Positions 10,334 through 28,665 of a stretch of DNA of 32,000 bases are shown piece by piece (within the stretch, counting starts at the first letter, position 1; each line of letters opens with the position of its first letter). Position numbers and translations under genes: made by a program. Below the pieces are notes generated by a model. The model was not told the DNA's origin. It made no database searches and saw only the letters and a list, made by a program, of their open reading frames with translations. Source of the DNA: Methylophaga frappieri (lineage in GTDB: Bacteria > Pseudomonadota > Gammaproteobacteria > Nitrosococcales > Methylophagaceae); NCBI RefSeq assembly GCF_000260965.1, contig NC_017856.1, positions 570,001-602,000 on the forward strand. The letters run 5' to 3'.

Positions 10334-12154
10334 TTATGCTGCCTGTGTAGAGCTGGTTAAAATAGGAATTCGACCTTTGATCACGCGGCCGCCTGAAAGC
10401 TTGGCGATGTACTCCAGGTTGGGGAGCTGGCCTAATAACTGCGGTGGAAACATATCACCTTCTTCCTCCATCAAGCGCTCGCCATGATTGCCGGTAAATA
10501 ACGCGGGGCTGTCCGAGTTGGACGACATACCTTGAGTTTGCATGATGTACTGCAACCGAGTCTTAGGCAGATTGTCGGTAATGTATTGCTGCGTTTCGGC
10601 ATCCATCACCCGAAGGGCTATCAAGTTGTTGATGTTACCTAACACCTGGCGCGCCTTAGCTTCACTGCCTGTTCGAGCTGCAAAGTCAGCAAATGTCTGA
10701 GTAGCAATCACACAACGCATTTTTGCGCCACGACCTTTGTTGAGCAGTTGAATGAAGGGATCGTTGACGACTTCAGCCGCCTCATCGATGAAGATATTTA
10801 CGGGACGATTTTCAACACCATAGTTATAGCGATCACCGGCCACGGCGGTGAGATCGGATAAAAGCAACGAACCAATGGCGCTGCCAACCATGGCGTCGGT
10901 CAATGAATCCAACCCGATATAGGCCACTTGGGCATTGTTGATAATACGGCCAGAATCCGTAATTAACCGGCTGTCATCCACATCGTTTGCAATAGGTGAT
11001 AGCAATGGCCCTAATTCACTTGAAGTGAGCATATTGAGCACCGGCATCAATGAGGCCACCATCTTGGAATAGTGGGTTCTGTCATGCTCAAACATGCTCA
11101 AAAGGCCTTCCAAATCGGTATTGGCGGCAATGGGCTGAATGCGTTCGTAGTAAAAAAGCAGCATCGCCATGGCTTGTTTTGCCAAGGTATTGGCCTTTTC
11201 AGTAAAGCGTTTAATCTCCACACTAAAGTTTGGATACACCTGCTCCCCCCAGGCTGTGACGGCTTTTACTACCAAGCCTTCTGGGCCACCTTCCAAGAAT
11301 CGTCTCAGTGTTTTCAGATCAGGGCGCTGTGAAGTAAGCAACAGACCTTGCACTATGTTATTCAGTGCCATTTGGCCAAAGGCTTTAAATGGATCAGCAC
11401 CGGTTTCGGATGGGATTAATGCCGCAATTCGGCTGGCAATTTCAGTGCCCCGGTTAAAGTTTCTCAGGGGATTAAGACGTACTGAATGCTCTGGAAAACC
11501 CGGATGAAAATACACAAAGCGCTCAGGACTACCGGCGGCAATACAGGCTCGCTGCGCATTATCCTTAAGTTCTTTGTCGCCCTTGGGATCAATAATAATC
11601 ACAGCTTCATTGCGCAAAATGGCCTGAGTGATCATCGCATCAAAGCATCGGGTTTTTCCGGCACCGGTCGTACCGACAATTAAGGTGTGCCCCTCAGTGT
11701 GACCAACTGGCTGGTAAACATCTTCTTCTTTGGGCTCAACACCATGAATCCAGGTCGAACCCATTTGTTTGCCGTGACCTTGGTTAAGCAAGGTTTGCTT
11801 ATCCCGCTTTAAGATTTCATAAGCGCGTTGAGCATGACGTTGATCCCACTCAAAGCCATACCCTAACCACAATTCATCAGGATGTTTTGCCATCACCTTT
11901 TGCAAATGCGACAGCTCCATAAAAGCCAATGGTTTGCCTTTTAGCCCCTTCTGCAATTTATACAGACGGTAAGCCTCAGGCAGGCGGTACAACGCCATGC
12001 CCGAGGAAATCCCTGTCATCCACCAAAATGGCTCAGGTGGTAGCTCAGTCAGCATTTCTGCGGCAATTGCCCCAGTGGCCCCAACCAGCCAACCCGCTGC
12101 TGCCATGGCCTCATAGTTCGTGCGCCAGGGCATTTCGTATGCGTTTTCTTTCAT
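10334..12154 (-). CDS. traD: TraD, type IV coupling protein (VirD4/TraD family)
   Basis: 606 aa with N-terminal TM segments, Walker A GTTGAGKT and Walker B-like VNIFIDEAA. It lies directly downstream of the relaxase gene. Confidence 0.9.
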   Translation of the reverse strand: MKENAYEMPWRTNYEAMAAAGWLVGATGAIAAEMLTELPPEPFWWMTGISSGMALYRLPEAYRLYKLQKGLKGKPLAFMELSHLQKVMAKHPDELWLGYGFEWDQRHAQRAYEILKRDKQTLLNQGHGKQMGSTWIHGVEPKEEDVYQPVGHTEGHTLIVGTTGAGKTRCFDAMITQAILRNEAVIIIDPKGDKELKDNAQRACIAAGSPERFVYFHPGFPEHSVRLNPLRNFNRGTEIASRIAALIPSETGADPFKAFGQMALNNIVQGLLLTSQRPDLKTLRRFLEGGPEGLVVKAVTAWGEQVYPNFSVEIKRFTEKANTLAKQAMAMLLFYYERIQPIAANTDLEGLLSMFEHDRTHYSKMVASLMPVLNMLTSSELGPLLSPIANDVDDSRLITDSGRIINNAQVAYIGLDSLTDAMVGSAIGSLLLSDLTAVAGDRYNYGVENRPVNIFIDEAAEVVNDPFIQLLNKGRGAKMRCVIATQTFADFAARTGSEAKARQVLGNINNLIALRVMDAETQQYITDNLPKTRLQYIMQTQGMSSNSDSPALFTGNHGERLMEEEGDMFPPQLLGQLPNLEYIAKLSGGRVIKGRIPILTSSTQAA

Positions 12155-12202: not shown

Positions 12203-14353
12203 TTAACGTTCAGCGTGAGCGGTAAACAGAACCGTTTCCCCCTCATCAAACTGGCATTGGTCACTGGCCGAGATCCCCCGAAGCAGCTGTCCGGCTGGAA
12301 TACCATGCTCATTGGCGACTTGGCGTAAGGTTTGAATCGTGACGCGAATACCATCGGCACTATGATCCACGTCTGGGTAATCACCATCGGTCAGTAAGAT
12401 GGGCAAATCTTTCACAAAATTAACCATCTGTTGCCGCTGCACGTGTTTGGGGTCGGTACTTGAGTTCGCATTGGCCGCAATCGGCTTTTGCTTACGCTCA
12501 GCTCTTGTGGCGAGCTCTTTTGCTTGGGCACTGGTTGTCTCAGTTCGACTCGGACGCTGTGAAGCCTCTTTGTTCTGAATTGCTGACACTGATTCTGCGT
12601 CTTGTTTGGGAAGGTCAATCAGTGCAGTAAGCCCTTTAGAAATCGATACTTTCAGCAGCAACCCTTGCTCCTGAACGCCATCTTTCGTAGTCACAGTTCT
12701 GGCCTTACGTGTCGGGTTTGCGGGATCTAGTTCAAGCCAATCTAATTGACTGAGTTCAGCAAGCAGTTTTCGGGGAGCACACCAAGGCCTTACGGCATCG
12801 GGATAGCGGATCAAGATCTGTTCACCAACCATAACCAACGCACTGCTGGCCCCTGGGAGCCACGCTAAAGATTCAGGCAGATTCAATGTTGCTTCGTTTT
12901 GCTGGCTTACGTTATTTCCGATTGCAGCATCGTTTGAATCGTTAGGCTTTTCGCATCCATCACCTGGAGCATTTTCAGTTGCCTGGGGGTTATTAACATC
13001 ACTAGCAAGACGAAGTTCATCATCTTGTTCGGACGGTTTTGTCGATGGCGACTTAGTCGAATTGCTATGTTCGATTGATGATGACGCTTCAGGCAAGTCT
13101 GGATGCTCACTGGAACGACTCTGAGGTTCTGCTTGTGTTTGCTGTGTTGCTTCCCACTCAGATTTGCTAAACAGTCTCACGCTACTTGGTACATTCGAGC
13201 TGAACAATAAATCGGCCTCAGATATATGCAGCATGGGTAACCAGATTGGTTTGTCGTCTTTGATCAGCACTTCAGGGGCAAGGCTTTCATATCGCTCATT
13301 TGAGGCGGATTTCGTGGCCAATCCTCGCTCAATGAGGATGTCCGCAAGGGTATCGGGATCTCTTGGAATGCCAGGTATCTTGTCTTTGGACAACAGCTCA
13401 ATGATGTCCTTAGCCGCGCTTTTCCAAACCAGGTAAAGATGGGTTGATTGATTTGATTTTCGTACCCAGACTCTGGCGTCTCGCTGATTGACCAGCCATT
13501 GCGAACTGGCAAGTAATCGCCTCATGGCATCAAGTAGATAGCGTTCGACTGGGACACCAAGGGCATTGTCGTCAACGGAAATTCGTTGAGCTTTTAGGTC
13601 TCGCTGGACACTGGTTTGGTCAGCTTCAATAACCAATTTGGACAGGACATGATCGGGATCGGTATTGCCAATTGCCTCCAGCATGGCTTGCAAAATCTCA
13701 GGGCCCGGCTGGGTTAACCAGGCGAGCAACTCAGGTGTCATCACCCGGTTTAAAACCAGAATTGAGAATTGCTCGTGCCGCTTGCAACGTCCGTCGCGCC
13801 AGCGAATGAAATAGCGTTCAATGCTGTTATTAGTGGTCCACTGAGATAAGGTTTCTAAAAAAGGGTTCCATTGATAGCGTCCATCTTCATCCGTGATGGA
13901 CAAGTCTGAAACGGGCTTACCAATATCATGGAACAAACCGCCCAATGCCGCCGCAACACGCCACCTTGGCTCTAGCTCTTTTTTCTCAACTGGAGTGCCA
14001 CTGGTAACAAAAATGATCCCTTCAGCTGCTTGTGCCGCCCAGAAAGCAACTTCCAACGAATGACGTAATAAACCACCAGCACCACTGTGATGATGATGCT
14101 CAGAAGCTGGCAGCAAGTGGACATAAGCAGCCAGATGATCAATGCAGGGCTGAATCAGCCTTTGAAACTCACGCTGATTAAAGCCAAGTACCTGGCGCAG
14201 TTTGGCAATTAGCTCGTCTTGTGTGGACTGCAAATCCTCGGGGGACGCAGCTGGCAACCCTTTCAGGAATGGCGGGTAGCGTGGAATTTCCGCATCCGGT
14301 TGCGATGACAGCTCTGGTAGTGCTTTGGTTTGAAAAAATAGGTTTTTGAACAT
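12203..14353 (-). CDS. traI: TraI, MobH-family relaxase with HD domain
   Basis: 716 aa with a His cluster and HD motifs (HHHHSGAGGLLRHSLEV, FHDIGK) typical of SXT/R391/IncA/C MobH relaxases. The C-terminal half contains Ser/Thr/Pro/Gln-rich linkers. GGAGG is the RBS. Confidence 0.9.
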   Translation of the reverse strand: MFKNLFFQTKALPELSSQPDAEIPRYPPFLKGLPAASPEDLQSTQDELIAKLRQVLGFNQREFQRLIQPCIDHLAAYVHLLPASEHHHHSGAGGLLRHSLEVAFWAAQAAEGIIFVTSGTPVEKKELEPRWRVAAALGGLFHDIGKPVSDLSITDEDGRYQWNPFLETLSQWTTNNSIERYFIRWRDGRCKRHEQFSILVLNRVMTPELLAWLTQPGPEILQAMLEAIGNTDPDHVLSKLVIEADQTSVQRDLKAQRISVDDNALGVPVERYLLDAMRRLLASSQWLVNQRDARVWVRKSNQSTHLYLVWKSAAKDIIELLSKDKIPGIPRDPDTLADILIERGLATKSASNERYESLAPEVLIKDDKPIWLPMLHISEADLLFSSNVPSSVRLFSKSEWEATQQTQAEPQSRSSEHPDLPEASSSIEHSNSTKSPSTKPSEQDDELRLASDVNNPQATENAPGDGCEKPNDSNDAAIGNNVSQQNEATLNLPESLAWLPGASSALVMVGEQILIRYPDAVRPWCAPRKLLAELSQLDWLELDPANPTRKARTVTTKDGVQEQGLLLKVSISKGLTALIDLPKQDAESVSAIQNKEASQRPSRTETTSAQAKELATRAERKQKPIAANANSSTDPKHVQRQQMVNFVKDLPILLTDGDYPDVDHSADGIRVTIQTLRQVANEHGIPAGQLLRGISASDQCQFDEGETVLFTAHAER

Positions 14354-14433: not shown

Positions 14434-15831
14434 TCATACCAATTTCTGGCCACTAAGTACCAAAGGTCCGTACTCTCTGCGCTCCATGTTTGCATCGTAA
14501 TTTCCCAGGTATGACTCAAACTCCTGTTGGATACGATCAATATCTGAGGTCTCCGTCGTGATGAACCCAAATGGAATAGAAGCTGATTCACCCGGTTTTT
14601 GTAGGTAAAAGCAAAGCAAGGAAAAGACACCAGGAATAGAAATGACTTCTACTGACCCGCCCAGAAAACCTTCAGCAACCTTTATAGCTTTGTCCTTCAT
14701 TGGGCCGAGTGCCTTTTTCCATATCTGTTCCTGATGTTTGTCCCTGCTACCTGCCACAGGCAGATAGAGAAGGGTTTGAAGCCCTTTGGTGGCATTGAGC
14801 AATTCTGAAGTTCGACTAAAGGATTGATTGCTCATTAGCCAAAAACGATCTGACGGTGCTAGCCAGGTACATGTGGCACTGGATTTGCCGTCCTTCAAAT
14901 GCTTCTTGATGAGAGTCGTTAATTGGTTCCAGTTGGCGCTATTTGTTGGCGTGCCTAGAAAGTAGGAGCGGCAAGATGATGAGGCGCTTTGTTTAACCGC
15001 TAATATGGCTAGTGCAGTAAGGTCAATGCCATCCGATGTGAAACAATCGAGTAATTGTGGTTCATTTAGCGTAACTAACGCAGAAACAATGTCCTGAATA
15101 TTAGAGGAGTTATATGAGCTGAGTAGTACCTCGTTCAGATTTTTTTGGATTTCATCAACATCAAAAAAACGGCTTTCTGAATGTCGTTCGATTGAATTAC
15201 GTTCAGTGTCGAGTGAAAAAGTAAGCGCAAAACGGGCGGTATAATCTTTATTCTTTCTGACATCCGATAATTTATACAGCTCTACTTTACGAATATCGTT
15301 AACACCATCGAAGCTGATCGACTCTTCCTCAAAAATATCAATATAGTTTCTTAGGAATGCCGATTTAGCATAGTTGATACTATTGCTGAGTTTCTCTGTT
15401 TCTGGAGAAAGGCGTATGGCATTTAGAGGAGAACTAATCTTGTCATCGGATCGAATTAAACCAAATGACAATAGGTCAAATTTGAAGGTACTGGTTCCTT
15501 CAAATAATTTTGTGATTTTCGGACGATTGTCAGAGAGCCCATCAAAATATTTATGCGCCTCAGCGGTCAGTTGAATATTACCCTCGTTGTCCACGGAGAT
15601 TTCATTCAGGCTGACTAATTGCGACACAGCTATGCTGATTTCCTTTTCAGAGAGTCCAAGAAATTTCGCCAATTGGGTAGCCGACATATTACCCACTTTC
15701 AGCAGGCGCAGGATAAACTCGCGAATGAAGGGTAAATCACTTCTGCCTACCAGTGTGTATTCAAACCTAAAGGCCTGAACAGGTACCGCAATATCTATCG
15801 TCATTAGAGGAATCAAAGTGTGATTTTTCAT
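14434..15831 (-). CDS. Unknown-function partner protein with a predicted N-terminal winged-HTH, coupled to the NERD-kinase-helicase gene
   Basis: The track ORF (506 aa) begins inside the upstream gene. The ATG at 15831 (MKNHTLIPL...) shares its A with the upstream TAA (TAATG), giving 465 aa. Residues ~33-100 (FIREFILRLLKVGNMSATQLAKFLGLSEKEISIAVSQLVSLNEISVDNEGNIQL) look like a MarR/TrmB-type wHTH. I recognise no motif in the rest. Confidence 0.75.
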   Translation of the reverse strand: MKNHTLIPLMTIDIAVPVQAFRFEYTLVGRSDLPFIREFILRLLKVGNMSATQLAKFLGLSEKEISIAVSQLVSLNEISVDNEGNIQLTAEAHKYFDGLSDNRPKITKLFEGTSTFKFDLLSFGLIRSDDKISSPLNAIRLSPETEKLSNSINYAKSAFLRNYIDIFEEESISFDGVNDIRKVELYKLSDVRKNKDYTARFALTFSLDTERNSIERHSESRFFDVDEIQKNLNEVLLSSYNSSNIQDIVSALVTLNEPQLLDCFTSDGIDLTALAILAVKQSASSSCRSYFLGTPTNSANWNQLTTLIKKHLKDGKSSATCTWLAPSDRFWLMSNQSFSRTSELLNATKGLQTLLYLPVAGSRDKHQEQIWKKALGPMKDKAIKVAEGFLGGSVEVISIPGVFSLLCFYLQKPGESASIPFGFITTETSDIDRIQQEFESYLGNYDANMERREYGPLVLSGQKLV

Positions 15832-18800
15832 TATCGTTTCCCTCCATTCTTCACCGTCTGTTTCGCTGACACGATGCGATACTCTTCGCTTTGGTGACTT
15901 TGGATATACGAGGCCACTTGGCCAAGTGGCAAAGAAGCGTTTTCTCGGTTCCACATTTGCATGGAGCCAACAATCAATAAACGATCCATAGCACGAGACA
16001 TGGCAACATTGATCCGGTTAGGTTCTTTCAAAAACTTGGGCTTTCGATCTTTACCATTGCGGGTAATTGACACAATGATTACCCGATTCTCCTTACCTTG
16101 ATAGCTATCAACCGTATCGATTTTGATCAGGGTTCTGAACTCAGGACTCCAGGCTAATTCGTTGAACTTTCTTCGTAAGAGTCGTTTTTGAGCACCATAC
16201 ATACAGATAACGCCAATGGCAGGTTCGCCTGAAGAAACTAGAGAGGTAAGCTGTTCAACATAGTCGCCATTGGCTTCAATCTCTTTTAAAACGGCGAGAA
16301 TCTGATTTGCTTCTTCAAGATTAACGAGGCTCGTACCATCTTCACTGTCGAAGCCGAACTTACATTCTGACGTGTCCAGCCAGGTCACAGGTGCTTTCAA
16401 AACATCGATGCCATCATTATAAAAAACAGGGATTTCTCGATCTCCTGTGATCAAAGGTTGTTCATAGAAAGTATCTGAAACCAGTCGACTGATCGGTTCA
16501 GCCATACGGTATTGAGTCAAAAGGCTCCTTCCGACGGCTTTGCCGTATGGAGACAGAAATGCCTTTTCAAAATCGCTCTTGAAGACTTCCTTTTGAAATG
16601 GCTCAACTCTTGGAACACCCAGTTTCCTCAATATGGCGTTTTTATGCTCCTCCTGGAATAGAGGTGGCAATTGCTTGTGATCCCCAACCAGCAAAATACG
16701 ATTGGCAGATTGCATTGCAATAGCAAGCTCTGATGATATAGAACGTGCCGCTTCGTCGATAATCACCCAGTCATATTGAATCTGATTTAGGCCCAGATGC
16801 CCGAGCCCCATACCTACGCAAGTCCCGCATACCAAAGTTCTGGATCTGGCCAGAAACTCCTCATAGCTTCCAGGATTGGATGATAGCCTGTCTCTGTAAT
16901 CATTAACCAAATCTAACAGGGCGCTTATGCGTCTATGCTCATGGGGGCCGATGCCATAAAGCACATTAAGGTGCTTATCGATTTTTTCACCGATACTGCC
17001 TAGCTCCAACTCACTGATCTCAATTGAATATGATTCATTGAGTTCAGATATGATTTGATAACAAAGCGATTCCAGGCTAGACGATAAACTGGCTGACAGT
17101 TGCTCGTCCGAAGAATCACTAATATCAGCCTGCAAGCGAAGTGCGTTTTTGATTTTCTTCTTGATACCAAGTTCCGCGTTGAGAATGGCATCAATATACT
17201 CAGGTTCCAACTTTAGTGATGGCTGAATAAACTGAATTCGCTCCCTGATTTCAGCAATAAAGGACTGTCTTCTTGATTCGATCAAGTTGCGTGAATAAAC
17301 ATCTTTAAGGCCTTGGGAGACCGATGCTTCTGAGTTACTGAATCGAACAATATCAATTGGAGTTTCCAGTCTAGAGCAGTGTTTACGGATACGCTCAACA
17401 GCCGTATTGACGGCCTCGTGTGACTGACTAACAAGCAAAATATGCTGTGCATTACCTTCAGTCATCAAGTAATGTACGAACGCCGAGATAAACTCTGTTT
17501 TACCTGTGCCTGGTGGCCCTTGTAAAAGTGACAGTGGCCCTTTGCTAAACAGGGTTTTGAAGGCATCGCGCTGTGCCTCGTTCAGACTAACTGTCAAATT
17601 GTCCTCATCGTCATATTGATTATATCGATCCAACTGTTCTTCAGTAGGAACAACTTTATAATCCGTAAAAGGTTGATCTATAGAGGGCTCAAAATAGTCT
17701 GTTAGGTCAGATATGACCGCATTCTTATTGAGCACTCTCTCCATCGCCTTTTTACGGCGACTGTAGGATGCCCTGTCTCGTTTTGTGCGAAGGTATAAAA
17801 CGTCGCCGGTTTTTGGGTAATTCTTACCGGAACTCAGCGGGACTCGCATTTCTGAGCTGGTGGACTGGTCAATGTTGACCTTCCCTACGATAAACTCCTT
17901 ATCATCGACCTTCTTGATGGCGATGACATCATCCTCTTTAGAAAAGCGGTCAAGCACTTCGTTATCTGAATCATAAGGAATAACCAATTCATTTTTTCGA
18001 ATATCAGGCTTCGGATCGTCGGCGACTTCAACGCTTGGAAGCGCTTCTGTCTCTGTCTCTAAAATAGCCTTCCATATGTTCTTTGTGGCAATCTTTTCAT
18101 TCTTTATTGAAACAATGGATTCTTCATCATATTCAACATCAGCAAGTAACTTCTTGAGTTGCTCATCAATGTCTTTACTGAGCTTCTCATCGACCTCTTT
18201 GCTTTGAGTGTTTTCCTTAACTGCTGCTTTACTATCAATAAGAAATGTTTCGTGAGCCAATAGGTAGGACTGAAGTGCTGAGGTATCCGTCTGGTAATCA
18301 GAAGGTTCGATGTTGATTTTTATGGGTAGCGTTAACTGGCTTTTATCCCGAATCCAGGGTGGAATATCATCGGTTTTGCGAGGTGTTAGTCCACCTTCGA
18401 TAGCTTCATTTATCGGGTTAAAGAAAATCGTCCAGGAAGAGTCTACACCAGACAGTAACACCTTCACTGAGTCTGTATTTTTCGTGGAGGGTTCATAAAA
18501 CAGAAACAGCTCGCCGTTATCAGGTAAAAGACTGATTGCTTCGTTAAAGTCCTGACGGAATAGCTGGACGTTCAACTCCTCGATGGATTCAGATGAGGTT
18601 TCGTAAAGCTCTTTGAGTGACTGGCTAAATCTTTCCAAAGAAATAAACCCGGCACTGTCCGATTTTTCAGCTTTGATGATTTCAATTAACTGCGGATGCG
18701 TATTTTCTTCTTCTAGGTCATCCCAGTCGAGTCCAAGGAGCTCACAAGCCATACGAATAACAGCATAGTTATCGCGCACAATGGCTGTTGCGTTATGGAT

Positions 18801-20882
18801 CGTTTCAGGACTATATCGATGGTTTTTAACTTCAGTTGTCCCAAGCTTAAAGTCGGGTAAGTCGATGATATAGACGTTAAGTTCTTCACCTTCGGCCAGT
18901 ACAAGTATATTCCCAGGATGTATATCGCCATGAGTAACTTCACTTTCATGCAAGAAGCTAACATGGCTAATTAAGGCGTTGATGGCTTTGAGCTTCTGTT
19001 CTTCAGAAACATTGTAAGTCGCCCATGTGCCCCATGAGGGCGCGTCGATAAAATCCTGGATCAGAAAAAGTTCAGATTTGTGGGTAATACCCGTGTCCCG
19101 AATGCTAGGGATAAACCCAGCTCCAAGCCCCTGGATCTTTTCAGCTTTCTCAATAAAAGCTTTGCAGAAAAAGATATTACTGGAATCTTCATTGTCGAGG
19201 GCGTTGTTCCAGATTTTAACAAGTAGCTGACCCGAGCGATAAACTTCTTTTGCATCGGTAGAGGATATTTCCTCATCTTCGACATAGGTCTTATAGAGTT
19301 TAATCTCGGTTTTGTATTGTTCGATAAGGGAACTATCAAATAGCTCAATGGTTTCTGCTTCAGGCTGTGATGCTGAAAAAGCGGCTAGAAATTCGTGAGC
19401 ATTCCGGTAACGATCCTGTGGCTCAGGACTGATAGCTTTTTGTATGACAGGTGCGTACCAGATACTGGAAGCGGTAATGTTATTTATAGCGTCTTTAATT
19501 GATGCGGGATTGAGGCGTTTCCCCTGCATTATCAGCCAGGTCAGAATGCCCAGTGAATATATGTCACGGTCATACTCGGTGCCATTATGCTCCGAGTTCT
19601 GCTCCTCAGGGATGGGTATAATCCCTGAGCTAATTGCTTTGCGTCTATCACCGACAGTTCCTGCTGGCTTATGGTAGGCCGACATGAAACTGGACATGGC
19701 CATTTTCATACCAGGGGAAAGCCATAAGCTGTGATCGCCAATATCTCGGTGAGCAATTTTTATATCATGCAGAGAGGAAAAATTATTCAGGATAATTTTG
19801 ACGAGTGTCGCCCGCTCTTCTTCGGCGAACTTGATAACAAAAGAAGAAATAAATTCATTTAGGCGTGAATAGTTATGGGGAAGCTCAAAAAGCTCGTAAA
19901 ACTCCTCGGTAATATTGTTTGGATCAATATTGGTCAGAGAGCGTAAACAGGCGTTATATAAATCCCCGTCGTTTGAACGTATGAATGATAAGACTTCTTT
20001 CTCGTGACTGACGATTTTATAGCGTTCGTCTCGCGTTTTACTGCCAGCATCATCTAACTCAGAGAAGTCCCATCTTCTCAGCAGTGCAAAGTCGTCCTTG
20101 TTGTTCTTGTTTTTAGATAAGAACTCGGTGTATATGGACTCAATGTTCTCTGGCGGGAATATCTTCTCAATGGCTTCGTAACCATCGACGATTAGACTCT
20201 TGGGTTTGGTCTCACCTTCGGAGAAGATTTGATCAAAAACCGAGATGTCTTGGTTTAAGCTTTTATTGGCTTGCGGATGTGGTCGAAAGCGTTTGTTGTA
20301 CGCATCTTCGACCGAAAGTTGTAGAAACTCATTTAGCGTTAGGACGTGTTCCTGTTCTCTAGGCGGCAGTTTAGAAGCATCAGCTGTGCCCGTTAACACT
20401 ACTAGAAAGTCTACCTTGGGACGGTCAAACTTGTGCCCCTGAAAGCTAGGAAAAGCCCGCCCACACTTGGCAAGTTTCGATGTGAGCAGATGAGCCTTGT
20501 CTTGTGTTTTGCTGACAGCTGATCGCTCTCTGTACTCTCCATTTTGATACCAATTATCACCAGACGCAGTAAGCTCGCCATTCCAATGCTTTAGCTCAAC
20601 GATGATGACGTTATAGTGGGTCACAATGACAAGATCGAATTCCCCTTCACGGCCAGAACCAGCAAGTCGAAAGCCTGCATATCCTTTCCAGGGGAACATA
20701 GCATTCCCTCCAAGCTTTAAGACCTTTAAGTCACTCAAAGAGCCGAGTTTTGCTGGTTTGGATTCCTGCTTCTGGTTAGCAGCAGCAAAAGTTTGAGCGA
20801 TTTTTTCTATGGCTCTAACTTCGTGAAGCGTTAATCCACCTTCCCAGTATTTAACGTCCATTTTATTTGTATCATGCGACAT
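15831..20882 (-). CDS. 1683-aa multidomain protein: NERD nuclease, degenerate kinase-like domain, kinase-like domain, unassigned ~370-aa region, Upf1/Dna2-like SF1 helicase
   Basis: The ORF is uninterrupted.
- NERD: aa ~15-190, with the PD-(D/E)xK-like core EFDLVIVTHYNVIIVELKHW.
- Kinase-like 1: aa ~230-505, with IAHRDIGDHSLW and DIYSLGILTWLIMQGKR but no DFG.
- Kinase-like 2: aa ~515-725, with LLVKIW, THGDIHPGNILV and YIIDLPDF.
- Helicase: aa ~1096-1645, with GPPGTGKT (nt 17496-17519), VIIDEAARS, LLVGDHKQLPP, VDSYQGKENRVIIVS and RINVAMSRAMDRLLIVG. Confidence 0.85.
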   Translation of the reverse strand: MSHDTNKMDVKYWEGGLTLHEVRAIEKIAQTFAAANQKQESKPAKLGSLSDLKVLKLGGNAMFPWKGYAGFRLAGSGREGEFDLVIVTHYNVIIVELKHWNGELTASGDNWYQNGEYRERSAVSKTQDKAHLLTSKLAKCGRAFPSFQGHKFDRPKVDFLVVLTGTADASKLPPREQEHVLTLNEFLQLSVEDAYNKRFRPHPQANKSLNQDISVFDQIFSEGETKPKSLIVDGYEAIEKIFPPENIESIYTEFLSKNKNNKDDFALLRRWDFSELDDAGSKTRDERYKIVSHEKEVLSFIRSNDGDLYNACLRSLTNIDPNNITEEFYELFELPHNYSRLNEFISSFVIKFAEEERATLVKIILNNFSSLHDIKIAHRDIGDHSLWLSPGMKMAMSSFMSAYHKPAGTVGDRRKAISSGIIPIPEEQNSEHNGTEYDRDIYSLGILTWLIMQGKRLNPASIKDAINNITASSIWYAPVIQKAISPEPQDRYRNAHEFLAAFSASQPEAETIELFDSSLIEQYKTEIKLYKTYVEDEEISSTDAKEVYRSGQLLVKIWNNALDNEDSSNIFFCKAFIEKAEKIQGLGAGFIPSIRDTGITHKSELFLIQDFIDAPSWGTWATYNVSEEQKLKAINALISHVSFLHESEVTHGDIHPGNILVLAEGEELNVYIIDLPDFKLGTTEVKNHRYSPETIHNATAIVRDNYAVIRMACELLGLDWDDLEEENTHPQLIEIIKAEKSDSAGFISLERFSQSLKELYETSSESIEELNVQLFRQDFNEAISLLPDNGELFLFYEPSTKNTDSVKVLLSGVDSSWTIFFNPINEAIEGGLTPRKTDDIPPWIRDKSQLTLPIKINIEPSDYQTDTSALQSYLLAHETFLIDSKAAVKENTQSKEVDEKLSKDIDEQLKKLLADVEYDEESIVSIKNEKIATKNIWKAILETETEALPSVEVADDPKPDIRKNELVIPYDSDNEVLDRFSKEDDVIAIKKVDDKEFIVGKVNIDQSTSSEMRVPLSSGKNYPKTGDVLYLRTKRDRASYSRRKKAMERVLNKNAVISDLTDYFEPSIDQPFTDYKVVPTEEQLDRYNQYDDEDNLTVSLNEAQRDAFKTLFSKGPLSLLQGPPGTGKTEFISAFVHYLMTEGNAQHILLVSQSHEAVNTAVERIRKHCSRLETPIDIVRFSNSEASVSQGLKDVYSRNLIESRRQSFIAEIRERIQFIQPSLKLEPEYIDAILNAELGIKKKIKNALRLQADISDSSDEQLSASLSSSLESLCYQIISELNESYSIEISELELGSIGEKIDKHLNVLYGIGPHEHRRISALLDLVNDYRDRLSSNPGSYEEFLARSRTLVCGTCVGMGLGHLGLNQIQYDWVIIDEAARSISSELAIAMQSANRILLVGDHKQLPPLFQEEHKNAILRKLGVPRVEPFQKEVFKSDFEKAFLSPYGKAVGRSLLTQYRMAEPISRLVSDTFYEQPLITGDREIPVFYNDGIDVLKAPVTWLDTSECKFGFDSEDGTSLVNLEEANQILAVLKEIEANGDYVEQLTSLVSSGEPAIGVICMYGAQKRLLRRKFNELAWSPEFRTLIKIDTVDSYQGKENRVIIVSITRNGKDRKPKFLKEPNRINVAMSRAMDRLLIVGSMQMWNRENASLPLGQVASYIQSHQSEEYRIVSAKQTVKNGGKR

Positions 20883-21127
20883 TGATTAATATTCCAATTC
20901 AATTCCAGTTAACGTCATCCCTTCTCCTGCCATATAACACCTTAGAAGTGATGTATACCTACCATTCGTTGCATACTTGCCTTAAGTAGAGGTGTCATCA
21001 ATTTATCAAATGTGACCACTTATTTTCTCCTTAGTCGTTTATTTGCTAGAAAAAGAGCACTATCCTTTTTATAGACGCCCAATTACCAAATTTGATAATG
21101 GCAAGCTCAACTAAATGAAGTAATAAA

Positions 21128-24100
21128 TTAGTCTTGCTCTCTGAGCATCAGCTCAAAATCATCACAAAGTTTATCAACCAAATCTTCAGTCTCTTTAAAG
21201 AAATAGTCACCGACTTTGGAACGATAGAGCGCACGATACTTACGATAAATTTTTGAAAAATCATCATAGATTTCATTTTCTGAAACATGCGACTTAATCT
21301 TAACGATCAATCGCTCACCTTCAGTAGAGCTGTTTACATAGCTGAAGAAGTCAGAAATTTTTGATTCGAATTCCAGAATGAGTGAGCCGATTTTCTCTTC
21401 CTGATCGTTGCGTGCAGCAATAATTGCTAAAATGTCATATTGCCCACCAGGCCCAGGAGGTGCTCCGGTTGCGACTTCTGTTGGTTTCTTTTTCTTCTTT
21501 TTAGGTTCTTCAGCAATTACTTCAACCATGCCTATTTGGTTGTCAAAATACACTTCAATAGGGTCTTTGACGTCATCGCTTCGATGAAGCATGTTATATA
21601 GGGTGTTGAATTTACGCCAAAAAAACAGAAAGCTTGGTTCGCTATACTTGGCATCCAAGGCTATTACAAATTCAATGCGATTTAATATCGTAAAATATTG
21701 TGCTGCTTTAGCCTTGGTATCTGCTGTGCGCTGAGGGTTCGCTTCAATGTATTTTTTAAGACTGCTTTCAAAATCAAGATAGGATTCAGGCTGATCTCGT
21801 TTGACAGGGTCCCTATAAATTCCCATAAACACATTGAAAAACTTATCGTACGTATCAGACTTGTTGAGCTCAGTAAGGAGAATATCGAGAACCTTTTTAT
21901 CTCCGAAAGGATCAAAGTCGCTGACAACAACATCAGAGAAATGCTCAAACGCATCTTTGATGTTCTGAACGTTTACATTGTTATAAGAGAAATCAACAAT
22001 TTTACAGTCGTTTTTATACTTGGCCGTTCTGTTAACACGTGAAATCGTTTGTATGGCGCTAATACCACGAATTTCTTTATCCAAAAACAGCGTATGCAGT
22101 TTTTTCTCGTCAAACCCTGTCTGAAGCTTGGCGACAACGATGATCAAGCCATTTTTCTTTAAGGCAAAGTTCTCCAATACTTTTTCTTCAGATAGGCCTT
22201 CATTCAAGCCCGTAGCACTTTGCTCGTCCTGATTGCTCGAATAAACAATATGAATTGGAGCCTCTGCATATTTCTCATATTTAGGAAGCTTAACCAACTC
22301 GTTAAAGTATTTAGTGACGGCTTCCTTATAAGCGATAGCCGACTTAATGGAATATACTGCAAGCATGGCTTTACCAGTACCACGTATTTGGCGGTAAACA
22401 TCTTTTACCAGAAGGTCGGCAACATACTTGGATATTGCGTCAATACGTTCTCGGTTCTCATACACCTGCTTTTTCTGAGCATCTTTAAACTCCTTCTCTG
22501 TGAAACCTTCGAGTGGATTTGAAGGTAAATCAAATAGCATTTTAGATGCTACTGGTACAATGTTTTTAAGCGGGTTGAGGATGAAGCCATCTTCTATCGC
22601 TTCTTTCATGGTAAAGCTATCAAATGGCCGCCACAGCTTTTCGCTTTCTGCATAACCGCTAAATTCACCAAAACGTGCCAGCGTGTGATCATCCGGTGTA
22701 GCGGTGAAACCGACAATTAAGTTCTTCTTCGTTGCCTTCCCAGCATAAGCTTCGCCATCAAAAGGACTTTGCAATTCGTCGAAGATACTGACCATTTCTT
22801 CATGTTGATCACCACTATTAGAGCGATGTATCTCATCGATGAGAAAAACAATACGCATTTTGGCAAGCTTTGCTAAAACACTCGCATCCATCATCTCTTT
22901 AACTGCGCCGAACTTCTGTAAGTTAACAATCACAATTCGGCTATCAGAGGCTAAAGCATTTTGAAAGGTCTTCTTGTTCGTAGCTTCAACCACCAAGCGC
23001 TTATCAATATTCATGTTAAGCATTAGTGAGTCTATCTGGCTGCGCAACTGCAATCGGTCAACGACTATCATGACCTTGTCGTACACGTACTGCATATTGC
23101 CATTTTCGTCTGGGCGGCGAAGGTCTTTTAGTTGCAGTGCCGACCAACCGATAATATTTGACTTACCAAAGCCTGCTGCATATTGCATTAATAGAGAATA
23201 AACGTTTTTGTTATTCGAATAGGCTTTACGCTTTTGAAGGAGCTCAGCTTTTTTAGCTTCACTAACGCCAACCAACTGCTTCTCAAGAAGCTTTTCGAAA
23301 TAATCGGGGTCTTGTTCATGGTCTAAAAATTCATCTATCTTAGCCATGATTTTATCTGTACCAAACTTCTGTTTTGGCCTCGGCGAAATTAAGAATCCCG
23401 GCTCATTCTTAACCTCTTTAATGCCTTTTTTGACGTGTACGTCGCGTTCAATAAAGTTGTAGTATAGGATTTCTTTCTCAACCATGAACTTACTATAAAG
23501 AGCATTGAATAACTCTTTTAGCTTGGACTTTTTATCAGCATCAGGTTTAAGTAGAGGATATAGCTTAAATACGCTATGCGCCTTTTTTTCTATCTCTTCT
23601 CGGTCAAACTTGCCTTCTCGACAAGTTGTGAGTATTTCATCGAAATAGTCTGCAATGGTGCGAATAACATAGGTTTCACCAATATCTGTTGTGGTGATAT
23701 GTATAGCCTTTTCGAATATCTTTAAAAAGTCTTTGCGCAGCGCAAGCTTTTCATTTTCACTCAACATATCATTACTATCGATATGTTGGTGATAGGCTTT
23801 CACCGCTTCAAAGTAGTCTTTTATCACCTTGCCGCGCCCGTTTTTACTAGCGTTTTGGCTGGTATAGTTACTTTTCAGTTCGCTATAACCCAGATAGATA
23901 CCATTTACAAAAAGCACGATATCAGGGCGGAATGAGAATATCTGCTCGCCCTGAAACTTAAACTTATAAGGCAGCTCCTGTACAACCGAAAATATATTCT
24001 GCTCAAATAACTTGTTGCCGTGAATGACACTATCACTTGGGTAGAACAGGTGCAGCTTTACGCCTTGCAGGGTAATCGACTTATTTGCATTAATAAACAA

Positions 24101-24358
24101 AGCCATATTACGGCTACTGCCAATACGCTCTTGAATCAGCTCTATAAGCTCTTTAAGTAATAGGTTTTTGTCACCCTTATACTTTTTTAGCAGCGTATCG
24201 TAAGCCTTCTTGTTGAGATCAGTGTCACTGATGAAAGCTTCTAAGTCCTCCTCAATAACTAAAGAGTTGGTCACCGTGTTGGCCTTGACTTCTCTGTAGC
24301 CGAGTTCATTACAGAAGAAAGGAATCAAGAACTTATCTTGTAAGTGTAGTTCGTTCAT
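21128..24358 (-). CDS. hsdR: Type I restriction enzyme R subunit
   Basis: 1076 aa. The N-terminal PD-(D/E)xK nuclease region reads FRPDIVLFVNGIYLGYSELK. SF2 helicase motifs are AAGFGKSN (I), FLIDEIHRSN (II), GFTATP (III) and QTISRVNR (VI). An ATGA overlap couples it to the hsdS stop. Confidence 0.9.
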   Translation of the reverse strand: MNELHLQDKFLIPFFCNELGYREVKANTVTNSLVIEEDLEAFISDTDLNKKAYDTLLKKYKGDKNLLLKELIELIQERIGSSRNMALFINANKSITLQGVKLHLFYPSDSVIHGNKLFEQNIFSVVQELPYKFKFQGEQIFSFRPDIVLFVNGIYLGYSELKSNYTSQNASKNGRGKVIKDYFEAVKAYHQHIDSNDMLSENEKLALRKDFLKIFEKAIHITTTDIGETYVIRTIADYFDEILTTCREGKFDREEIEKKAHSVFKLYPLLKPDADKKSKLKELFNALYSKFMVEKEILYYNFIERDVHVKKGIKEVKNEPGFLISPRPKQKFGTDKIMAKIDEFLDHEQDPDYFEKLLEKQLVGVSEAKKAELLQKRKAYSNNKNVYSLLMQYAAGFGKSNIIGWSALQLKDLRRPDENGNMQYVYDKVMIVVDRLQLRSQIDSLMLNMNIDKRLVVEATNKKTFQNALASDSRIVIVNLQKFGAVKEMMDASVLAKLAKMRIVFLIDEIHRSNSGDQHEEMVSIFDELQSPFDGEAYAGKATKKNLIVGFTATPDDHTLARFGEFSGYAESEKLWRPFDSFTMKEAIEDGFILNPLKNIVPVASKMLFDLPSNPLEGFTEKEFKDAQKKQVYENRERIDAISKYVADLLVKDVYRQIRGTGKAMLAVYSIKSAIAYKEAVTKYFNELVKLPKYEKYAEAPIHIVYSSNQDEQSATGLNEGLSEEKVLENFALKKNGLIIVVAKLQTGFDEKKLHTLFLDKEIRGISAIQTISRVNRTAKYKNDCKIVDFSYNNVNVQNIKDAFEHFSDVVVSDFDPFGDKKVLDILLTELNKSDTYDKFFNVFMGIYRDPVKRDQPESYLDFESSLKKYIEANPQRTADTKAKAAQYFTILNRIEFVIALDAKYSEPSFLFFWRKFNTLYNMLHRSDDVKDPIEVYFDNQIGMVEVIAEEPKKKKKKPTEVATGAPPGPGGQYDILAIIAARNDQEEKIGSLILEFESKISDFFSYVNSSTEGERLIVKIKSHVSENEIYDDFSKIYRKYRALYRSKVGDYFFKETEDLVDKLCDDFELMLREQD

Positions 24359-25650
24359 GCAGCTCCTCCTGCATCATTGCTGGTTTTTGTAATCTTAACG
24401 TGTCCATTTACTGCGTCATTTACTATTGCAACCCTCAACTCCGACAATTTAGTTAACTGAGTTTTGAGATTATTAATAATTCCATCTAGCCTTTCAGTTG
24501 CCGAATCTAGATATGCCGAAATTTTCAATTGCTCATGATATGGTGGGTTAGGAACTAAAGTGTCTCGAATATCTTGGACAGATATAGCAACATACGTAGA
24601 GCCAGTTGCTATACTATTGAAATACCTACATAATGATTTCATTAGATAAAGGTGATATCGATGATCACCTTTGGAGCGGAAGGCACAAAGGCCACGACCA
24701 ATTCCATAGGCTTTATTTGCCACGTTCACAGCACCAACAGGCGCTCTCACGGATACCAATATATCGCCTTCTTTGGCATATTTTTTAACAGCATTGCACC
24801 AAACCTTTTCTTGTGGATGCTCAGCGCCAAATTCTGCATTTCCTTGCAAGAATGCTTCGCCTTTACCTTCATCTACGTAACTTGACGACTCTGGTGATTG
24901 CCCCATAATAGTATCACCAAGCTCTTTAAGTCGTTTTACTTCCCAATGCTTAGGCTTTTTAGCTGCCCAGATATAACCACTTTCTTCAAAAATACATTCA
25001 TTTTCTACGCCATTAACCACTGCATTAAAAATTATGCTTTCTCTAAGCTCTTTATACTTTTTGATCTTCTCTAGCAGTAACTTTTGTTTGGAATCTATTT
25101 GTTTACTTTTTGTGTCCAAGTAGTCTGATATAGTTGCTTGCTCAGCATAGGAAGGATTTGGAACTGTAATTGCTCCAAGCTTGTCAAAGTATAGCCGCAA
25201 ACGCATGTCCATAATGCCGCGTGAATTTTTACGGAATATTTTTTTGGCTGTTTCAGTTCTAAAAAGATAAGCAAAGTACCTTGGGTCAATGTCTTTACTT
25301 ACCTGTCTCAGTACGTCATAGGCAGGACTAGTAACACCATCATATTCAGACAAGCCCACTGAACCCATCCAAGCCAAAAGCTTGTTCACGACAATATCGT
25401 TCTTTCTGACAATCCAATACCCATCGGTCGTGCTGGCTTTGTTACCTCTGGCTTCCAAATCTTTGCGTGGCTTTACCCCAATGCCTGCATATAAAGAGAG
25501 TAACTCGTAATCATTGTCTGCTGGTGCTGCGTCGGTTACTAACCTAAATAGATCTTTTACGCGCTTTTCTTGCCACTCACTAGGTATAGTTTCTGACCAT
25601 TCGCCTTCGGCGTTTTTATACGAATCATAGGTTTCTGAATGCAACTTCAT
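24355..25650 (-). CDS. hsdS: Type I R-M specificity subunit with two target-recognition domains
   Basis: 431 aa. The conserved inter-TRD motif appears twice (VPNPSYAEQATISDYLD and VPNPPYHEQLKISAYLD). ATGA overlaps link it to the genes on both sides. Confidence 0.9.
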   Translation of the reverse strand: MKLHSETYDSYKNAEGEWSETIPSEWQEKRVKDLFRLVTDAAPADNDYELLSLYAGIGVKPRKDLEARGNKASTTDGYWIVRKNDIVVNKLLAWMGSVGLSEYDGVTSPAYDVLRQVSKDIDPRYFAYLFRTETAKKIFRKNSRGIMDMRLRLYFDKLGAITVPNPSYAEQATISDYLDTKSKQIDSKQKLLLEKIKKYKELRESIIFNAVVNGVENECIFEESGYIWAAKKPKHWEVKRLKELGDTIMGQSPESSSYVDEGKGEAFLQGNAEFGAEHPQEKVWCNAVKKYAKEGDILVSVRAPVGAVNVANKAYGIGRGLCAFRSKGDHRYHLYLMKSLCRYFNSIATGSTYVAISVQDIRDTLVPNPPYHEQLKISAYLDSATERLDGIINNLKTQLTKLSELRVAIVNDAVNGHVKITKTSNDAGGAA

Positions 25651-26099
25651 AGTGCGATAGCCTCATCCAGTTGTTTTAACTCTTCCTCTAGTGCTGCGAT
25701 TTCTTTTAAAACATCTTCAACACTGTGTTGCGCTTCAGGCTTGAAGAAAATTTTGTTAAAGTTAATTTCTACACCCACGACATTTTCAAGATATTCAAAC
25801 GGTTTACTGATGTATTTCGCCATAAAGGCTTCAATAGCTTGCTGATTAAGCACAGAATCTTTGTTAAATGGAATAACTTCGTAGTCTTTTTGATAATCCG
25901 GAGTCAACTCAACAGTAATTTCAATTCGTTCCGGTAGTTTTTTTGTGCCTTTCTTGACCGCAGCCTTAATGATAATTTTCCCGCACCCTAATGCTTGAGC
26001 AGCCCCTGTTTTACGATCTTCTTTGATTAAGGTTTCTTGCTCGTCATCGTAATAGTAGGTGCTTGAATTGGTCGTGACCTTAAGTGATTGTTTTTTTAG
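25647..26099 (-). pseudogene. hsdM: Out-of-frame C-terminal segment of hsdM (150 open codons with no ATG or GTG start)
   Basis: My translation of the frame one nt offset from hsdM stays open from just after a TAG (26102-26100) down to the TGA at 25647. It reads LKKQSLKVTTNSSTYYYDDEQETL...VVGVEINFNKIFFKPEAQHSVEDVLKEIAALEEELKQLDEAIAL. The tail resembles the conserved C-terminus of long HsdM proteins (GYEINFNRYFY...LEEI...LE.EI pattern, from memory). It ends in an ATGA overlap with hsdS. The track reports only the part starting at a TTG at 25907. Confidence 0.6.
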
Positions 26100-27724: not shown

Positions 27725-27732
27725 GTTCTTCC

Positions 27733-28665
27733 CTATGCTGTGACGCTATCGAAACCAGGCGCAATCGCAAGGTTACCGACACCGTATAAAGTTTGATAAT
27801 TTTTTAGCCATAAATGGAATTCGGGTGTTTTTAGCAGAGCCTCTTTAGAGCAATCAACATTCCAAAGCCGAAGCAAATACCCAGCGGTTGCCGCTCTAAT
27901 CTCAACCTTTAGAACGCCACCCGTCATACCATAATCCAGCTCAATCGCTTCGCTATGCTCTATGCGTGGGTGCGGCACCAACTCCAGCTCTACAAAGCGA
28001 TTCCATTGCCTGTCCTGAGTTTCGAGCTCCGTTTCAGACAACGTAGAGTCTTCAAGCACAACCGCTGCTTTAATTCTGGTCAGTACAAAGTCACGGAACT
28101 CACCATGCTTGCGGTCAAAACCACGAACATGCCAACGCAGGCCATTGTCCACCAGCGTATGCGGTACAATTTCACGCGTTGTTTCACCGCTCGATAACGA
28201 CACATAGGTGATACTCAAGGCTTTGCCTTTGTGAATGGCCTCGGTGACCTTCGCCACTATAAATAGGCTTGGCTTGTTTAAGTGATAAGGCGCTTCACAA
28301 GCCAGCGGTGGTTTTACCTTTCCAGTAAAGCCATCTCCGTATCCTTGGCTAATCGTCGCCAGCGTTCTCACAACGTCATAGTCGAACAAGGGTTCAAATG
28401 CTTCACCACGTTTATGCAACTTTAGCTTTTGGTCATACTCAATGTTGCTTGGTGCAAGCTCTCGGTACATTGTGAAGTCTTTCGTTGCTTGTGCAGCAGC
28501 TATGCTGAAGCGATCGACTAAATCCGCCCGTACCGCTTCTCCCTTAAACAATAAGGTGAAATCGATGTGGGCAATGCGATCCCTGGTTGCTTGTGGCAAC
28601 TGCGCTATCTGCGAAAGCCTATCTGGCTTCGCCACTACCGTTTGTTTCAGACCATCATTTGTCAT
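27733..28665 (-). CDS. BrxR-like WYL-domain transcriptional regulator
   Basis: 310 aa. The N-terminal wHTH pattern is RIAHIDFTLLFKGEAVRADLVDRFSIAAAQATKDFTMYRE. The WYL-type core is REIVPHTLVDNGLRWHVRGFDRKHGEFRDFVLTRI, followed by a C-terminal extension. It ends 8 nt before the hsdM ATG and is the first gene of the operon. Confidence 0.75.
   Translation of the reverse strand: MTNDGLKQTVVAKPDRLSQIAQLPQATRDRIAHIDFTLLFKGEAVRADLVDRFSIAAAQATKDFTMYRELAPSNIEYDQKLKLHKRGEAFEPLFDYDVVRTLATISQGYGDGFTGKVKPPLACEAPYHLNKPSLFIVAKVTEAIHKGKALSITYVSLSSGETTREIVPHTLVDNGLRWHVRGFDRKHGEFRDFVLTRIKAAVVLEDSTLSETELETQDRQWNRFVELELVPHPRIEHSEAIELDYGMTGGVLKVEIRAATAGYLLRLWNVDCSKEALLKTPEFHLWLKNYQTLYGVGNLAIAPGFDSVTA

Follow-up and report, generated by a model that had tools for sequence, protein, structure and literature searches.

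The window analysed here, a 32,000-nucleotide stretch of the Methylophaga frappieri genome (contig NC_017856.1, positions 570,001 to 602,000), includes two adjacent minus-strand genes, hereafter referred to as mkoA and mkoB, which very probably belong to Mokosh type I, SEC470 subtype, and travel as autonomous cargo within hotspot 5 of an SXT/R391 integrative and conjugative element (ICE). On the strength of the sequence comparisons, I consider membership of the pair in Mokosh type I close to certain, and a role in anti-phage defence is likely by analogy to its verified relatives. The system itself is already known, since Mokosh type I has been named, profiled and verified in Escherichia coli since 2022.

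Identification of the gene pair as Mokosh type I

Mokosh was named by Millman et al. (2022; bioRxiv 10.1101/2022.05.11.491447), with three systems verified in E. coli. Two type I constructs are given in Table S2 of that study. One is from enterotoxigenic E. coli (ETEC) H10407, with an MkoA of 1215 amino acids (aa) annotated 'Kinase-Helicase' and an MkoB of 602 aa annotated 'HTH-PLD', HTH standing for helix-turn-helix. The other, from E. coli SEC470, is marked 'v' (verified) in Tables S2 and S8, with an MkoA of 1652 aa and an MkoB of 478 aa annotated 'HTH' only. NERD was subsequently listed as a Mokosh type I domain in a 2023 review (PMC10952713), and a 2026 survey places Mokosh-TypeI among the defence modules of Vibrio cholerae O1.

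Both window proteins were compared to the PADLOC collection, at the level of profile matches. MkoA matches profile PDLC03921 with an E-value of 0 and 1850 bits, residues 8–1676 aligning to positions 1–1603 of the 1607 in the model, and MkoB matches PDLC03923 with an E-value of 1.9e-96, residues 2–457 aligning to positions 4–451 of 454. The two matches thus run from end to end, beyond the domains shared with other proteins. I retrieved the verified SEC470-type and H10407-type loci through the published 5' construct sequences (Table S2 of Millman et al., 2022). The SEC470-type proteins match the same two profiles as the window proteins, while those of the H10407 type match PDLC03920 and PDLC03922. 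A single collinear alignment of 1693 columns gives 42.4% identity between the MkoA of the window and that of the SEC470 type; for MkoB, the identity to the SEC470-type counterpart is 26% over 438 columns (E-value 7e-47). The Pfam architecture is also the same in both, with NERD, Pkinase, AAA_11 and AAA_12 in MkoA, and no Pfam domain in MkoB. A megablast search of positions 14354–21127 against 5,426 complete E. coli genomes gave no match, because the nucleotide sequences of the E. coli homologues have diverged too far.

The features that characterize Mokosh type I were examined individually. A Upf1-like (COG1112) superfamily 1 (SF1) helicase with an intact ATP site is present in MkoA, as is a Ser/Thr kinase domain in the same gene, here preceded by an additional, degenerate kinase-like domain. 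The full-length profile matches come from adjacent, co-directional genes that overlap by 1 nt, and homology to a verified member is collinear in both proteins. A PLD nuclease with an HxK(x)4D site was not found in the window MkoB. The verified SEC470 MkoB, annotated 'HTH' and devoid of Pfam domains, likewise has no PLD match, so this motif defines the H10407 subtype and Mokosh type II, rather than all of Mokosh type I.

A first-pass annotation of the window had taken the pair for a defence module belonging to no named system, a view to be abandoned if profile searches gave the two proteins to one. The PADLOC MkoA and MkoB profiles do so from end to end, and with the collinear verified SEC470 pair and the earlier tabulation of NERD they overturn the claim of novelty. 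The call of a two-gene defence module is supported by the homology to Mokosh type I. The sequence also bears out the two minus-strand genes of 1683 and 465 aa with their TAATG coupling at 15831, the 245-bp AT-rich region upstream of them, and the hotspot 5 setting beside a type I restriction-modification (R-M) operon, all of which are described below.

Co-conservation and distribution of mkoA and mkoB

A scan with the MkoB alignment, taking one genome per species, yielded 15 loci, in Hydrogenovibrio, Marinobacter, Shewanella, Bowmanella, Stutzerimonas and many Pseudomonas. A full-length MkoA homologue (39–97% identity) lies directly upstream, on the same strand, in all 14 loci with enough upstream DNA, and the C-terminus of MkoA is visible in the fifteenth, which is on a 2.2-kb contig. 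A full-length mkoA is also directly upstream of mkoB in the E. coli locus. The two genes are therefore strictly co-conserved outside this element. In 12 of the 15 loci they still overlap, by 1 or 4 nt, the start codon having been assigned mechanically in the other three. MkoB diverges faster than MkoA throughout, with identities of 87 vs 97%, 82 vs 90%, 45 vs 57% and ∼27 vs ∼42%, respectively.

None of these 15 loci carries the traI or hsd genes of the window near mkoAB, which indicates that the pair moves as an autonomous module. Among public records, a MkoB identical to that of the window is found in Methylophaga frappieri, and 99% identical proteins in V. cholerae (70 contigs), V. parahaemolyticus and Proteus; the MkoB family as a whole comprises 406 clusters at 50% identity.

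Retrieval of the E. coli loci revealed some peculiarities. A Mokosh I system of the verified type is found in E. coli TUM1886 (NZ_CP128970; 8753–9101 and 17428–18399 of the extracted locus), within an integrase island where its neighbours are a degraded 'TOTE conflict system' primase gene, an IS66 fragment, and an M48 peptidase with a type I R-M system. The 5' region of this locus is found in 432 of the 5,426 complete E. coli genomes. A match of 100% identity to the 'SEC470' construct of Millman et al. (2022) was found in strain TUM1886 only. The RefSeq entry named E. coli SEC470 (NZ_CP007594.1) possesses an H10407-type Mokosh, at the same coordinates as ETEC H10407 (NC_017633.1), and both entries are 5,153,435 bp long. 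The naming of strain SEC470 in public records is confusing.

Domain organization of MkoA

Pfam identifies NERD at residues 64–144 of MkoA, two Pkinase stretches (the best at residues 600–680), and the SF1 helicase domains AAA_11 and AAA_12 at residues 1100–1641. Residue invariance was scored in 16 MkoA homologues, down to 39% identity. In the NERD domain, none of D83, E96 and K98 varies. Further matches of the N-terminal module, to the PglW and MAD6 profiles, are taken up below.

The first kinase-like domain is probably a pseudokinase, judging from its catalytic residues. Its HRD motif (378–380) is invariant, but the catalytic loop, HRDxGDHSxW, has neither Lys nor Asn; S-(S/N)-F takes the place of DFG, and an invariant arginine, R269, occupies the position of the beta3 Lys. 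In the second kinase domain (Pfam Pkinase, 1e-11), K556, H651-G-D653-x-H-P-x-N658 and D674 are all invariant.

Residues ∼740–930 gave no profile match in Pfam, PADLOC, NCBIfam or PDB profile searches. This stretch is the least conserved part of the protein (conservation index 0.42–0.56), and has an AlphaFold pLDDT below 50. An AlphaFold fragment model of residues 700–1110 reached a pLDDT of 52 overall; it is poor because the homologue search with this fragment returned only three fragments. For residues ∼935–1090, the top Foldseek matches are Upf1, Senataxin and IGHMBP2 (E-values of 1e-3 to 2e-2), weak evidence from the model for a Upf1-type stalk and 1B barrel.

The C-terminal part of MkoA is a Upf1-like helicase core. 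Compared to the PDB, the MkoA family profile matches Upf1/NAM7 best (2e-37), followed by Sen1, Dna2, IGHMBP2 and ZNFX1. The helicase motifs, namely the Walker A GPPGTGKT with K1128, D1376-E1377, Q1404 and R1630, are invariant.

The domain assignments made in the first-pass annotation hold. NERD, the two kinase-like domains and the Upf1-like SF1 helicase are confirmed by Pfam and PDB profile matches, and the residues that it singled out, E96, K98, D653, D674 and K1128, are all invariant in the 16 homologues. Of the ∼370-aa region that it could not assign, about 190 aa (residues ∼740–930) still match nothing, but the part after residue ∼935 does, weakly, match Upf1, Senataxin and IGHMBP2 structures. 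For MkoB it had recognised a winged HTH as the sole feature; a weak HTH is indeed all that sequence comparison finds, but the C-terminal PLD-like fold described in the next section, which is visible in a structure model only, was missed.

Structure prediction for MkoB

An AlphaFold2 model of MkoB, built from 24 sequences, has a pLDDT of 86.7 and a pTM of 0.77. It is laid out as a beta-hairpin and winged helix, a middle domain, and a C-terminal alpha/beta domain. A Foldseek search of the PDB with the C-terminal domain retrieved the FAM83 pseudo-PLD (4urj), PLD (7e0m), vaccinia F13, NucT (6ehi) and TrmB, with E-values of ∼1e-4. The same search of the BFVD collection of viral models agrees with this, retrieving a PLD phosphodiesterase and a NucT-like nuclease. 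The C-terminus of MkoB is therefore predicted, from the model, to adopt a PLD-like fold without the catalytic motif.

Sequence-level searches came out empty for this region, so it is fold comparison alone that leads to the PLD-like call. Pfam on 24 MkoB members gave no PLD (PLDc) match, and a weak HTH only; a PDB profile search with MkoB returned noise only; and hhalign comparison of the MkoB alignments, including one of 120 sequences, to the H10407 MkoB sequence found nothing significant. Against a 44-sequence H10407-type profile, hhalign aligned only the N-terminal ∼114 aa, with a probability of 47%, the winged-helix domain being the only part that aligns with H10407-type MkoB.

Across 120 MkoB representatives there is no conserved His or Lys, and HxK(x)4D occurs in 2 of 122. 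The only residue invariant among the 120, down to ∼16% identity, is E395 (about 14647–14649 in the window), located on a beta-strand of the PLD-like domain. This conservation suggests that E395 marks a functional site other than HKD.

Two subtypes with complementary predicted nucleases

The system closest to that of the window is the SEC470 system (construct SG199; PDLC03921/PDLC03923). In both, mkoA is followed by mkoB, the stop codon of the first overlapping the start codon of the second; MkoA has a NERD-Pkinase-AAA_11-AAA_12 architecture and MkoB an HTH but no PLD signature, and the proteins are collinear over their full length. They differ in sequence (42% identity for MkoA, 26% for MkoB) and in location, an SXT/R391 hotspot in one case and an E. 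coli integrase island in the other.

The H10407 system (construct SG202; PDLC03920/PDLC03922) also combines an MkoA bearing a kinase and a Upf1-like helicase with an HTH-bearing MkoB encoded after it. Residues 531–1668 of the window MkoA match the H10407-type MkoA profile (2e-137), and residues 10–261 of the window MkoB match the H10407-type MkoB profile (4e-15). In contrast to the window MkoA, H10407-type MkoA (1153–1215 aa) lacks both NERD and the first pseudokinase. H10407-type MkoB (∼600 aa) possesses PLDc_2 with two invariant HKD motifs, whereas the window MkoB has a predicted PLD-like fold without HKD.

This distribution is consistent in the loci compared: all 16 of the SEC470 branch have NERD and no HKD, and all four of the H10407 type have HKD and no NERD. 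At the sequence level, the two Mokosh I subtypes are thus complementary in their predicted nuclease equipment. My literature search found no paper stating this NERD/HKD split within Mokosh type I. Since D83, E96 and K98 of NERD are invariant and MkoB is without HKD, with the reverse in the H10407 type, NERD is probably the effector nuclease of the SEC470 subtype; that it acts as such alongside a non-catalytic MkoB is the option I lean towards, by a small margin. A broader proposal is that Mokosh type I consists of two mechanistically different systems. The PLD of SEC470-branch MkoB would have lost HKD and become a non-catalytic sensor or adaptor that keeps E395, and the effector role would have moved to a NERD acquired as part of a PglW-like NERD-pseudokinase-kinase module. 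I regard the case for this as evenly balanced.

Mokosh type II was considered and rejected for the window pair. Its MkoC is the product of a single gene, with an N-terminal helicase, a C-terminal PLD and no kinase, while here there are two genes and a kinase. The MkoC profile matches only the helicase part of the window MkoA (1.9e-31); the window MkoB has no MkoC match, and the H10407 MkoB does.

Proposed mechanism

In the mechanism I propose, translational coupling would provide MkoA and MkoB in a fixed ratio, to act as a complex. MkoB, with its winged helix and inactive PLD-like domain, would together with the helicase recognise phage-derived nucleic acid, which may be RNA, an RNA/DNA hybrid or a replication intermediate. 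The Upf1-like motor would then use ATP to translocate 5'–3' and present the substrate to NERD, which in the SEC470 subtype would be the effector nuclease, replacing the catalytic PLD of H10407-type MkoB. The kinase/pseudokinase pair may be an activation switch, through autophosphorylation or phosphorylation of a target, as has been proposed for the PglW module; I suggest this role for the kinase tentatively, by analogy. Similar logic was put forward in the first-pass annotation, with the helicase as translocator, NERD as effector and the kinase as switch, and by analogy it is a reasonable hypothesis.

Several published observations bear on this scheme. Mutations of the helicase ATP site abolish Mokosh defence in E. 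coli homologues (Millman et al., 2022), and a two-gene construct protects E. coli (Millman et al., 2022). Nuclease-NTPase defence systems generally form complexes, according to a 2025 study.

Other observations weigh against it, or against the assignment as a whole. The window locus is known from its sequence alone, and its MkoB shares only 26% identity with the verified protein. Emphasis is placed on a PLD nuclease where Mokosh is defined in the literature, and the window MkoB has no HKD, although this is also true of the verified SEC470 MkoB. The PLD-like call comes from one AlphaFold model, with Foldseek E-values of ∼1e-4 and a TM of ∼0.5, and profile-profile alignment to the catalytic PLD stops short of the C-terminal domain. 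MkoB could also have another site, still active, to which the invariant E395 belongs. A 2025 study was unable to purify Mokosh type I. Finally, phage T4 escapes one E. coli Mokosh I via Alt and DNA glucosylation, which hints at the involvement of DNA or of a host protein, and is not predicted by RNA sensing.

Gene organization

The minus-strand mkoA/mkoB junction reads GGAGGGAAACGATAATGAAA, and includes a Shine-Dalgarno sequence. The mechanical list of open reading frames (ORFs) starts mkoB at an upstream GTG, giving a protein of 506 aa, compared to 465 aa from the ATG at 15831. The latter is the likely start, since GGAGG lies ahead of it, it overlaps the TAA of mkoA (GATAATGAAA), and homologues begin at the same place. 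The positions of all features are listed in Table 1.

A promoter is presumed to lie in the 245-bp region upstream of mkoA, and only presumed, because a scan of 20883–21127 with the sigma-70 consensus gave no site on the minus (coding) strand. A repeat scan of both intergenic regions found nothing meaningful, and Rfam identified no RNA family over the whole window.

Table 1. Position of the mkoAB pair, its predicted domains and neighbouring genes in the window.
Feature	Position	Strand	Description
mkoA	15831..20882	minus	1683-aa protein with NERD, probable pseudokinase, kinase and Upf1-like helicase; assigned to Mokosh type I MkoA, SEC470 subtype; ATG start
NERD PD-(D/E)xK nuclease domain	20451..20693	minus	MkoA aa 64–144; Pfam NERD 4.6e-11; D83, E96, K98
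First kinase-like domain	19323..20195	minus	MkoA aa ∼230–520, boundaries approximate; PADLOC PD-T4-6, Stk2 and PglW matches at aa 340–540
Second kinase domain	18723..19295	minus	MkoA aa ∼530–720; Pfam Pkinase, Kdo and APH matches; catalytic residues intact
Stretch without assignment	18093..18665	minus	MkoA aa ∼740–930, including a poorly conserved acidic linker; inside aa 531–1668 matching H10407-type MkoA profile PDLC03920
Helix / beta-barrel / helix module	17613..18080	minus	MkoA aa ∼935–1090; pLDDT 73–87 for aa ∼939–1049, sole confident part of the fragment model
Upf1-like SF1B helicase core	15948..17603	minus	MkoA aa ∼1094–1645; Pfam AAA_11 6.7e-41, AAA_12 2.3e-36
TAATG stop/start overlap, mkoA-mkoB	15829..15833	minus	One base (15831) common to TAA and ATG
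mkoB	14434..15831	minus	465-aa partner, assigned to Mokosh type I MkoB, SEC470 subtype; likely start ATG 15831, stop 14434
N-terminal beta-hairpin and winged-helix domain	15532..15816	minus	MkoB aa ∼6–100; weak HTH profile matches; model secondary structure; MarR/DtxR-type Foldseek matches
Predicted C-terminal PLD-like fold without HKD motif	14452..14979	minus	MkoB aa ∼285–460; AlphaFold2 and Foldseek
AT-rich region upstream of mkoA	20883..21127	minus	245 bp; 34% GC vs 44% for mkoA
TraD	10334..12154		Downstream of mkoAB
traI	12203..14353	minus	MobH-family relaxase, bounds hotspot 5; Pfam TraI_2 2e-83; NCBIfam MobH 1.8e-124; ICE backbone
hsdR	21128..24358	minus	Type I R-M; Pfam and PADLOC; hotspot 5 cargo, context outside the Mokosh system
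hsdS	24355..25650	minus	As hsdR
hsdM	26096..27724	minus	As hsdR
WYL regulator	27733..28665	minus	Pfam and PADLOC; hotspot 5 cargo (cargo block 21128..28665)

Genomic setting in hotspot 5

In SXT/R391 elements, hotspot 5 has a defined layout between s026 and traI (Wozniak, 2009; PMC2791158), and defence genes and a WYL regulator were found there in every case (LeGault, 2020). By gene content, the layout of the window is that of this hotspot. Downstream of mkoAB are the MobH/TraI_2 relaxase, TraD and a DUF4400 protein, the spacer between mkoB and traI being 80 nt, and the variable genes lie between traI and the s026/WYL side. Beyond HsdR, HsdS, HsdM and the WYL protein upstream, a 3'–5' exonuclease and an S24 peptidase are encoded. 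The cargo has a GC content of 41.8%, vs 48.0% for the backbone.

In V. cholerae GCA_026767295.1, mkoAB (with a 99% identical MkoB) is found beside traI, traD, traL, traE, traK, traB and traV. The cargo upstream is different, with another HsdR (1014 aa vs 1076 aa in the window) and a GmrSD type IV enzyme, and the spacer between hsdR and mkoA is 59 nt, vs 245 nt in the window. As judged from these sequences, the contents of hotspot 5 form a mosaic, even where the elements have mkoAB in common.

Two further observations concern the neighbouring genes. Firstly, hsdM looks split (25647–27724, minus strand). A 542-aa ORF, which spans positions 8–499 of the 661 in the PADLOC MTase_I model, stops at 26096, and another minus-strand frame is open from ∼26090 to 25647, ends in a typical HsdM tail (…VGVEINFNKIFFKPEAQHSVEDVLKEIAALEEELKQLDEAIAL) and overlaps the start of hsdS by 4 nt. 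The split may reflect a frameshift, a pseudogene or a sequencing error, and since hsdM looks split, the type I R-M system may be non-functional.

Secondly, a hairpin is predicted on the minus strand at 14354–14386, just upstream of the traI start at 14353 and inside the 80-nt spacer (−20 kcal/mol; z = −4.65 compared to shuffled sequences). It pairs the GGAGG Shine-Dalgarno sequence of traI with an upstream GAACCTCC, and no T-run follows it. The hairpin may serve to control translation, or to insulate the tra operon from the cargo.

Alternative explanations and related systems

The least improbable alternative, itself very unlikely, is that the pair is part of a composite with the adjacent type I R-M and WYL genes, either BREX type 2/Pgl-like or MADS-like, in which the NERD-kinase protein would be PglW or MAD6. 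It derives from the N-terminal 440 aa of MkoA, which match PglW (1.2e-23) and MAD6 (1.2e-33); HsdS and HsdM also weakly match the mad5 and mad2 models, and the E. coli SEC470-type locus is likewise near a type I R-M system. PglW (BREX type 2/Pgl), MAD6 (MADS) and NERD-kinase variants of DndF share with MkoA an N-terminal NERD restriction endonuclease, an inactive pseudokinase and an active Ser/Thr/Tyr kinase, a 'grammar' described for PglW and some DndF proteins (PMC12839542), and it is this shared module that accounts for the partial matches. They cover the NERD-kinase module only, and score 69 bits against a cut-off of 990 for PglW, and 116 against 460 for MAD6. The C-terminal half of MkoA is a Upf1-like helicase, where PglW-type proteins have wHTH (winged HTH) repeats and an inactive STAND domain. 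The partner genes of these systems are absent from the window, PglX, PglZ and BrxC among them, and I therefore rejected a BREX type 2 PglW or MADS MAD6 identity. As for the R-M genes, the hsd genes of the window adjoin mkoAB in none of the 15 loci found through MkoB, the V. cholerae ICE retains mkoAB with a different HsdR and GmrSD upstream, and the two-gene SEC470 construct (6737 bp) is sufficient for defence (Millman et al., 2022).

Marginally less probable still is that the pair is a new, undescribed two-gene defence system that has only generic helicase and kinase domains in common with known ones. Public records label the proteins 'hypothetical' or 'AAA domain-containing', no NCBIfam equivalog model reaches its cut-off for either, and MkoB has no Pfam domain, all of which would fit. 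The MkoA and MkoB profiles, however, match end to end and not in the shared domains alone, the verified Mokosh type I pair has identical architecture and gene order with collinear identities of 42% and 26%, and NERD was already listed for Mokosh type I (PMC10952713).

Equally improbable is that the pair serves the ICE itself, as an accessory helicase-nuclease that helps to process DNA during conjugation or takes part in entry exclusion, for example; mkoAB does lie directly upstream of traI on the same strand, 80 nt away, and hotspot genes were once suggested to promote ICE integrity during transfer (Wozniak, 2009; PMC2791158), but hotspot 5 is variable cargo dispensable for transfer, with defence systems in essentially all SXT ICEs (LeGault, 2020; Wozniak, 2009), no tra genes accompany the pair in Hydrogenovibrio, Marinobacter, Shewanella, Pseudomonas and E. 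coli, and the homologous E. coli pair alone protects against phage (Millman et al., 2022).

Within the assignment to Mokosh type I, the likeness of the window pair to other families is partial. Nhi and Nhi-like proteins, as MkoA, fuse a NERD-type nuclease to an SF1 helicase and have a role in defence. They differ in being encoded by a single gene, of ∼600 aa, and in lacking kinases and a partner. An Nhi identity was rejected, as the best PADLOC matches are MkoA and MkoB, with no Nhi model in the best 25 of 43. Among Upf1-family helicases, the MkoA core is most similar to Upf1/NAM7, Sen1, Dna2 and IGHMBP2. A parallel has been noted between Mokosh and MOV10L1/PLD6 (Zucchini) of the piRNA pathway, in which a helicase also has a PLD-fold partner; the window MkoA is bacterial and possesses added NERD and kinase modules, and its PLD-like partner is without the catalytic HKD used by Zucchini.

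Implications

The value of this locus as a discovery is low, as Mokosh type I has been known since 2022, with a name, profiles and verification in E. coli, and PADLOC and DefenseFinder should flag it. The locus does document Mokosh type I within hotspot 5 of an SXT/R391 ICE. A modest by-product of the sequence comparison is the apparent replacement, in the SEC470 branch, of a catalytic PLD by a NERD nuclease, and the complementary distribution of NERD in MkoA and catalytic PLD in MkoB makes the effector nuclease of each subtype testable by mutation. Finally, the near-identical MkoB proteins in V. cholerae, V. parahaemolyticus, Proteus and Methylophaga imply that ICEs known for antibiotic resistance also spread Mokosh type I.

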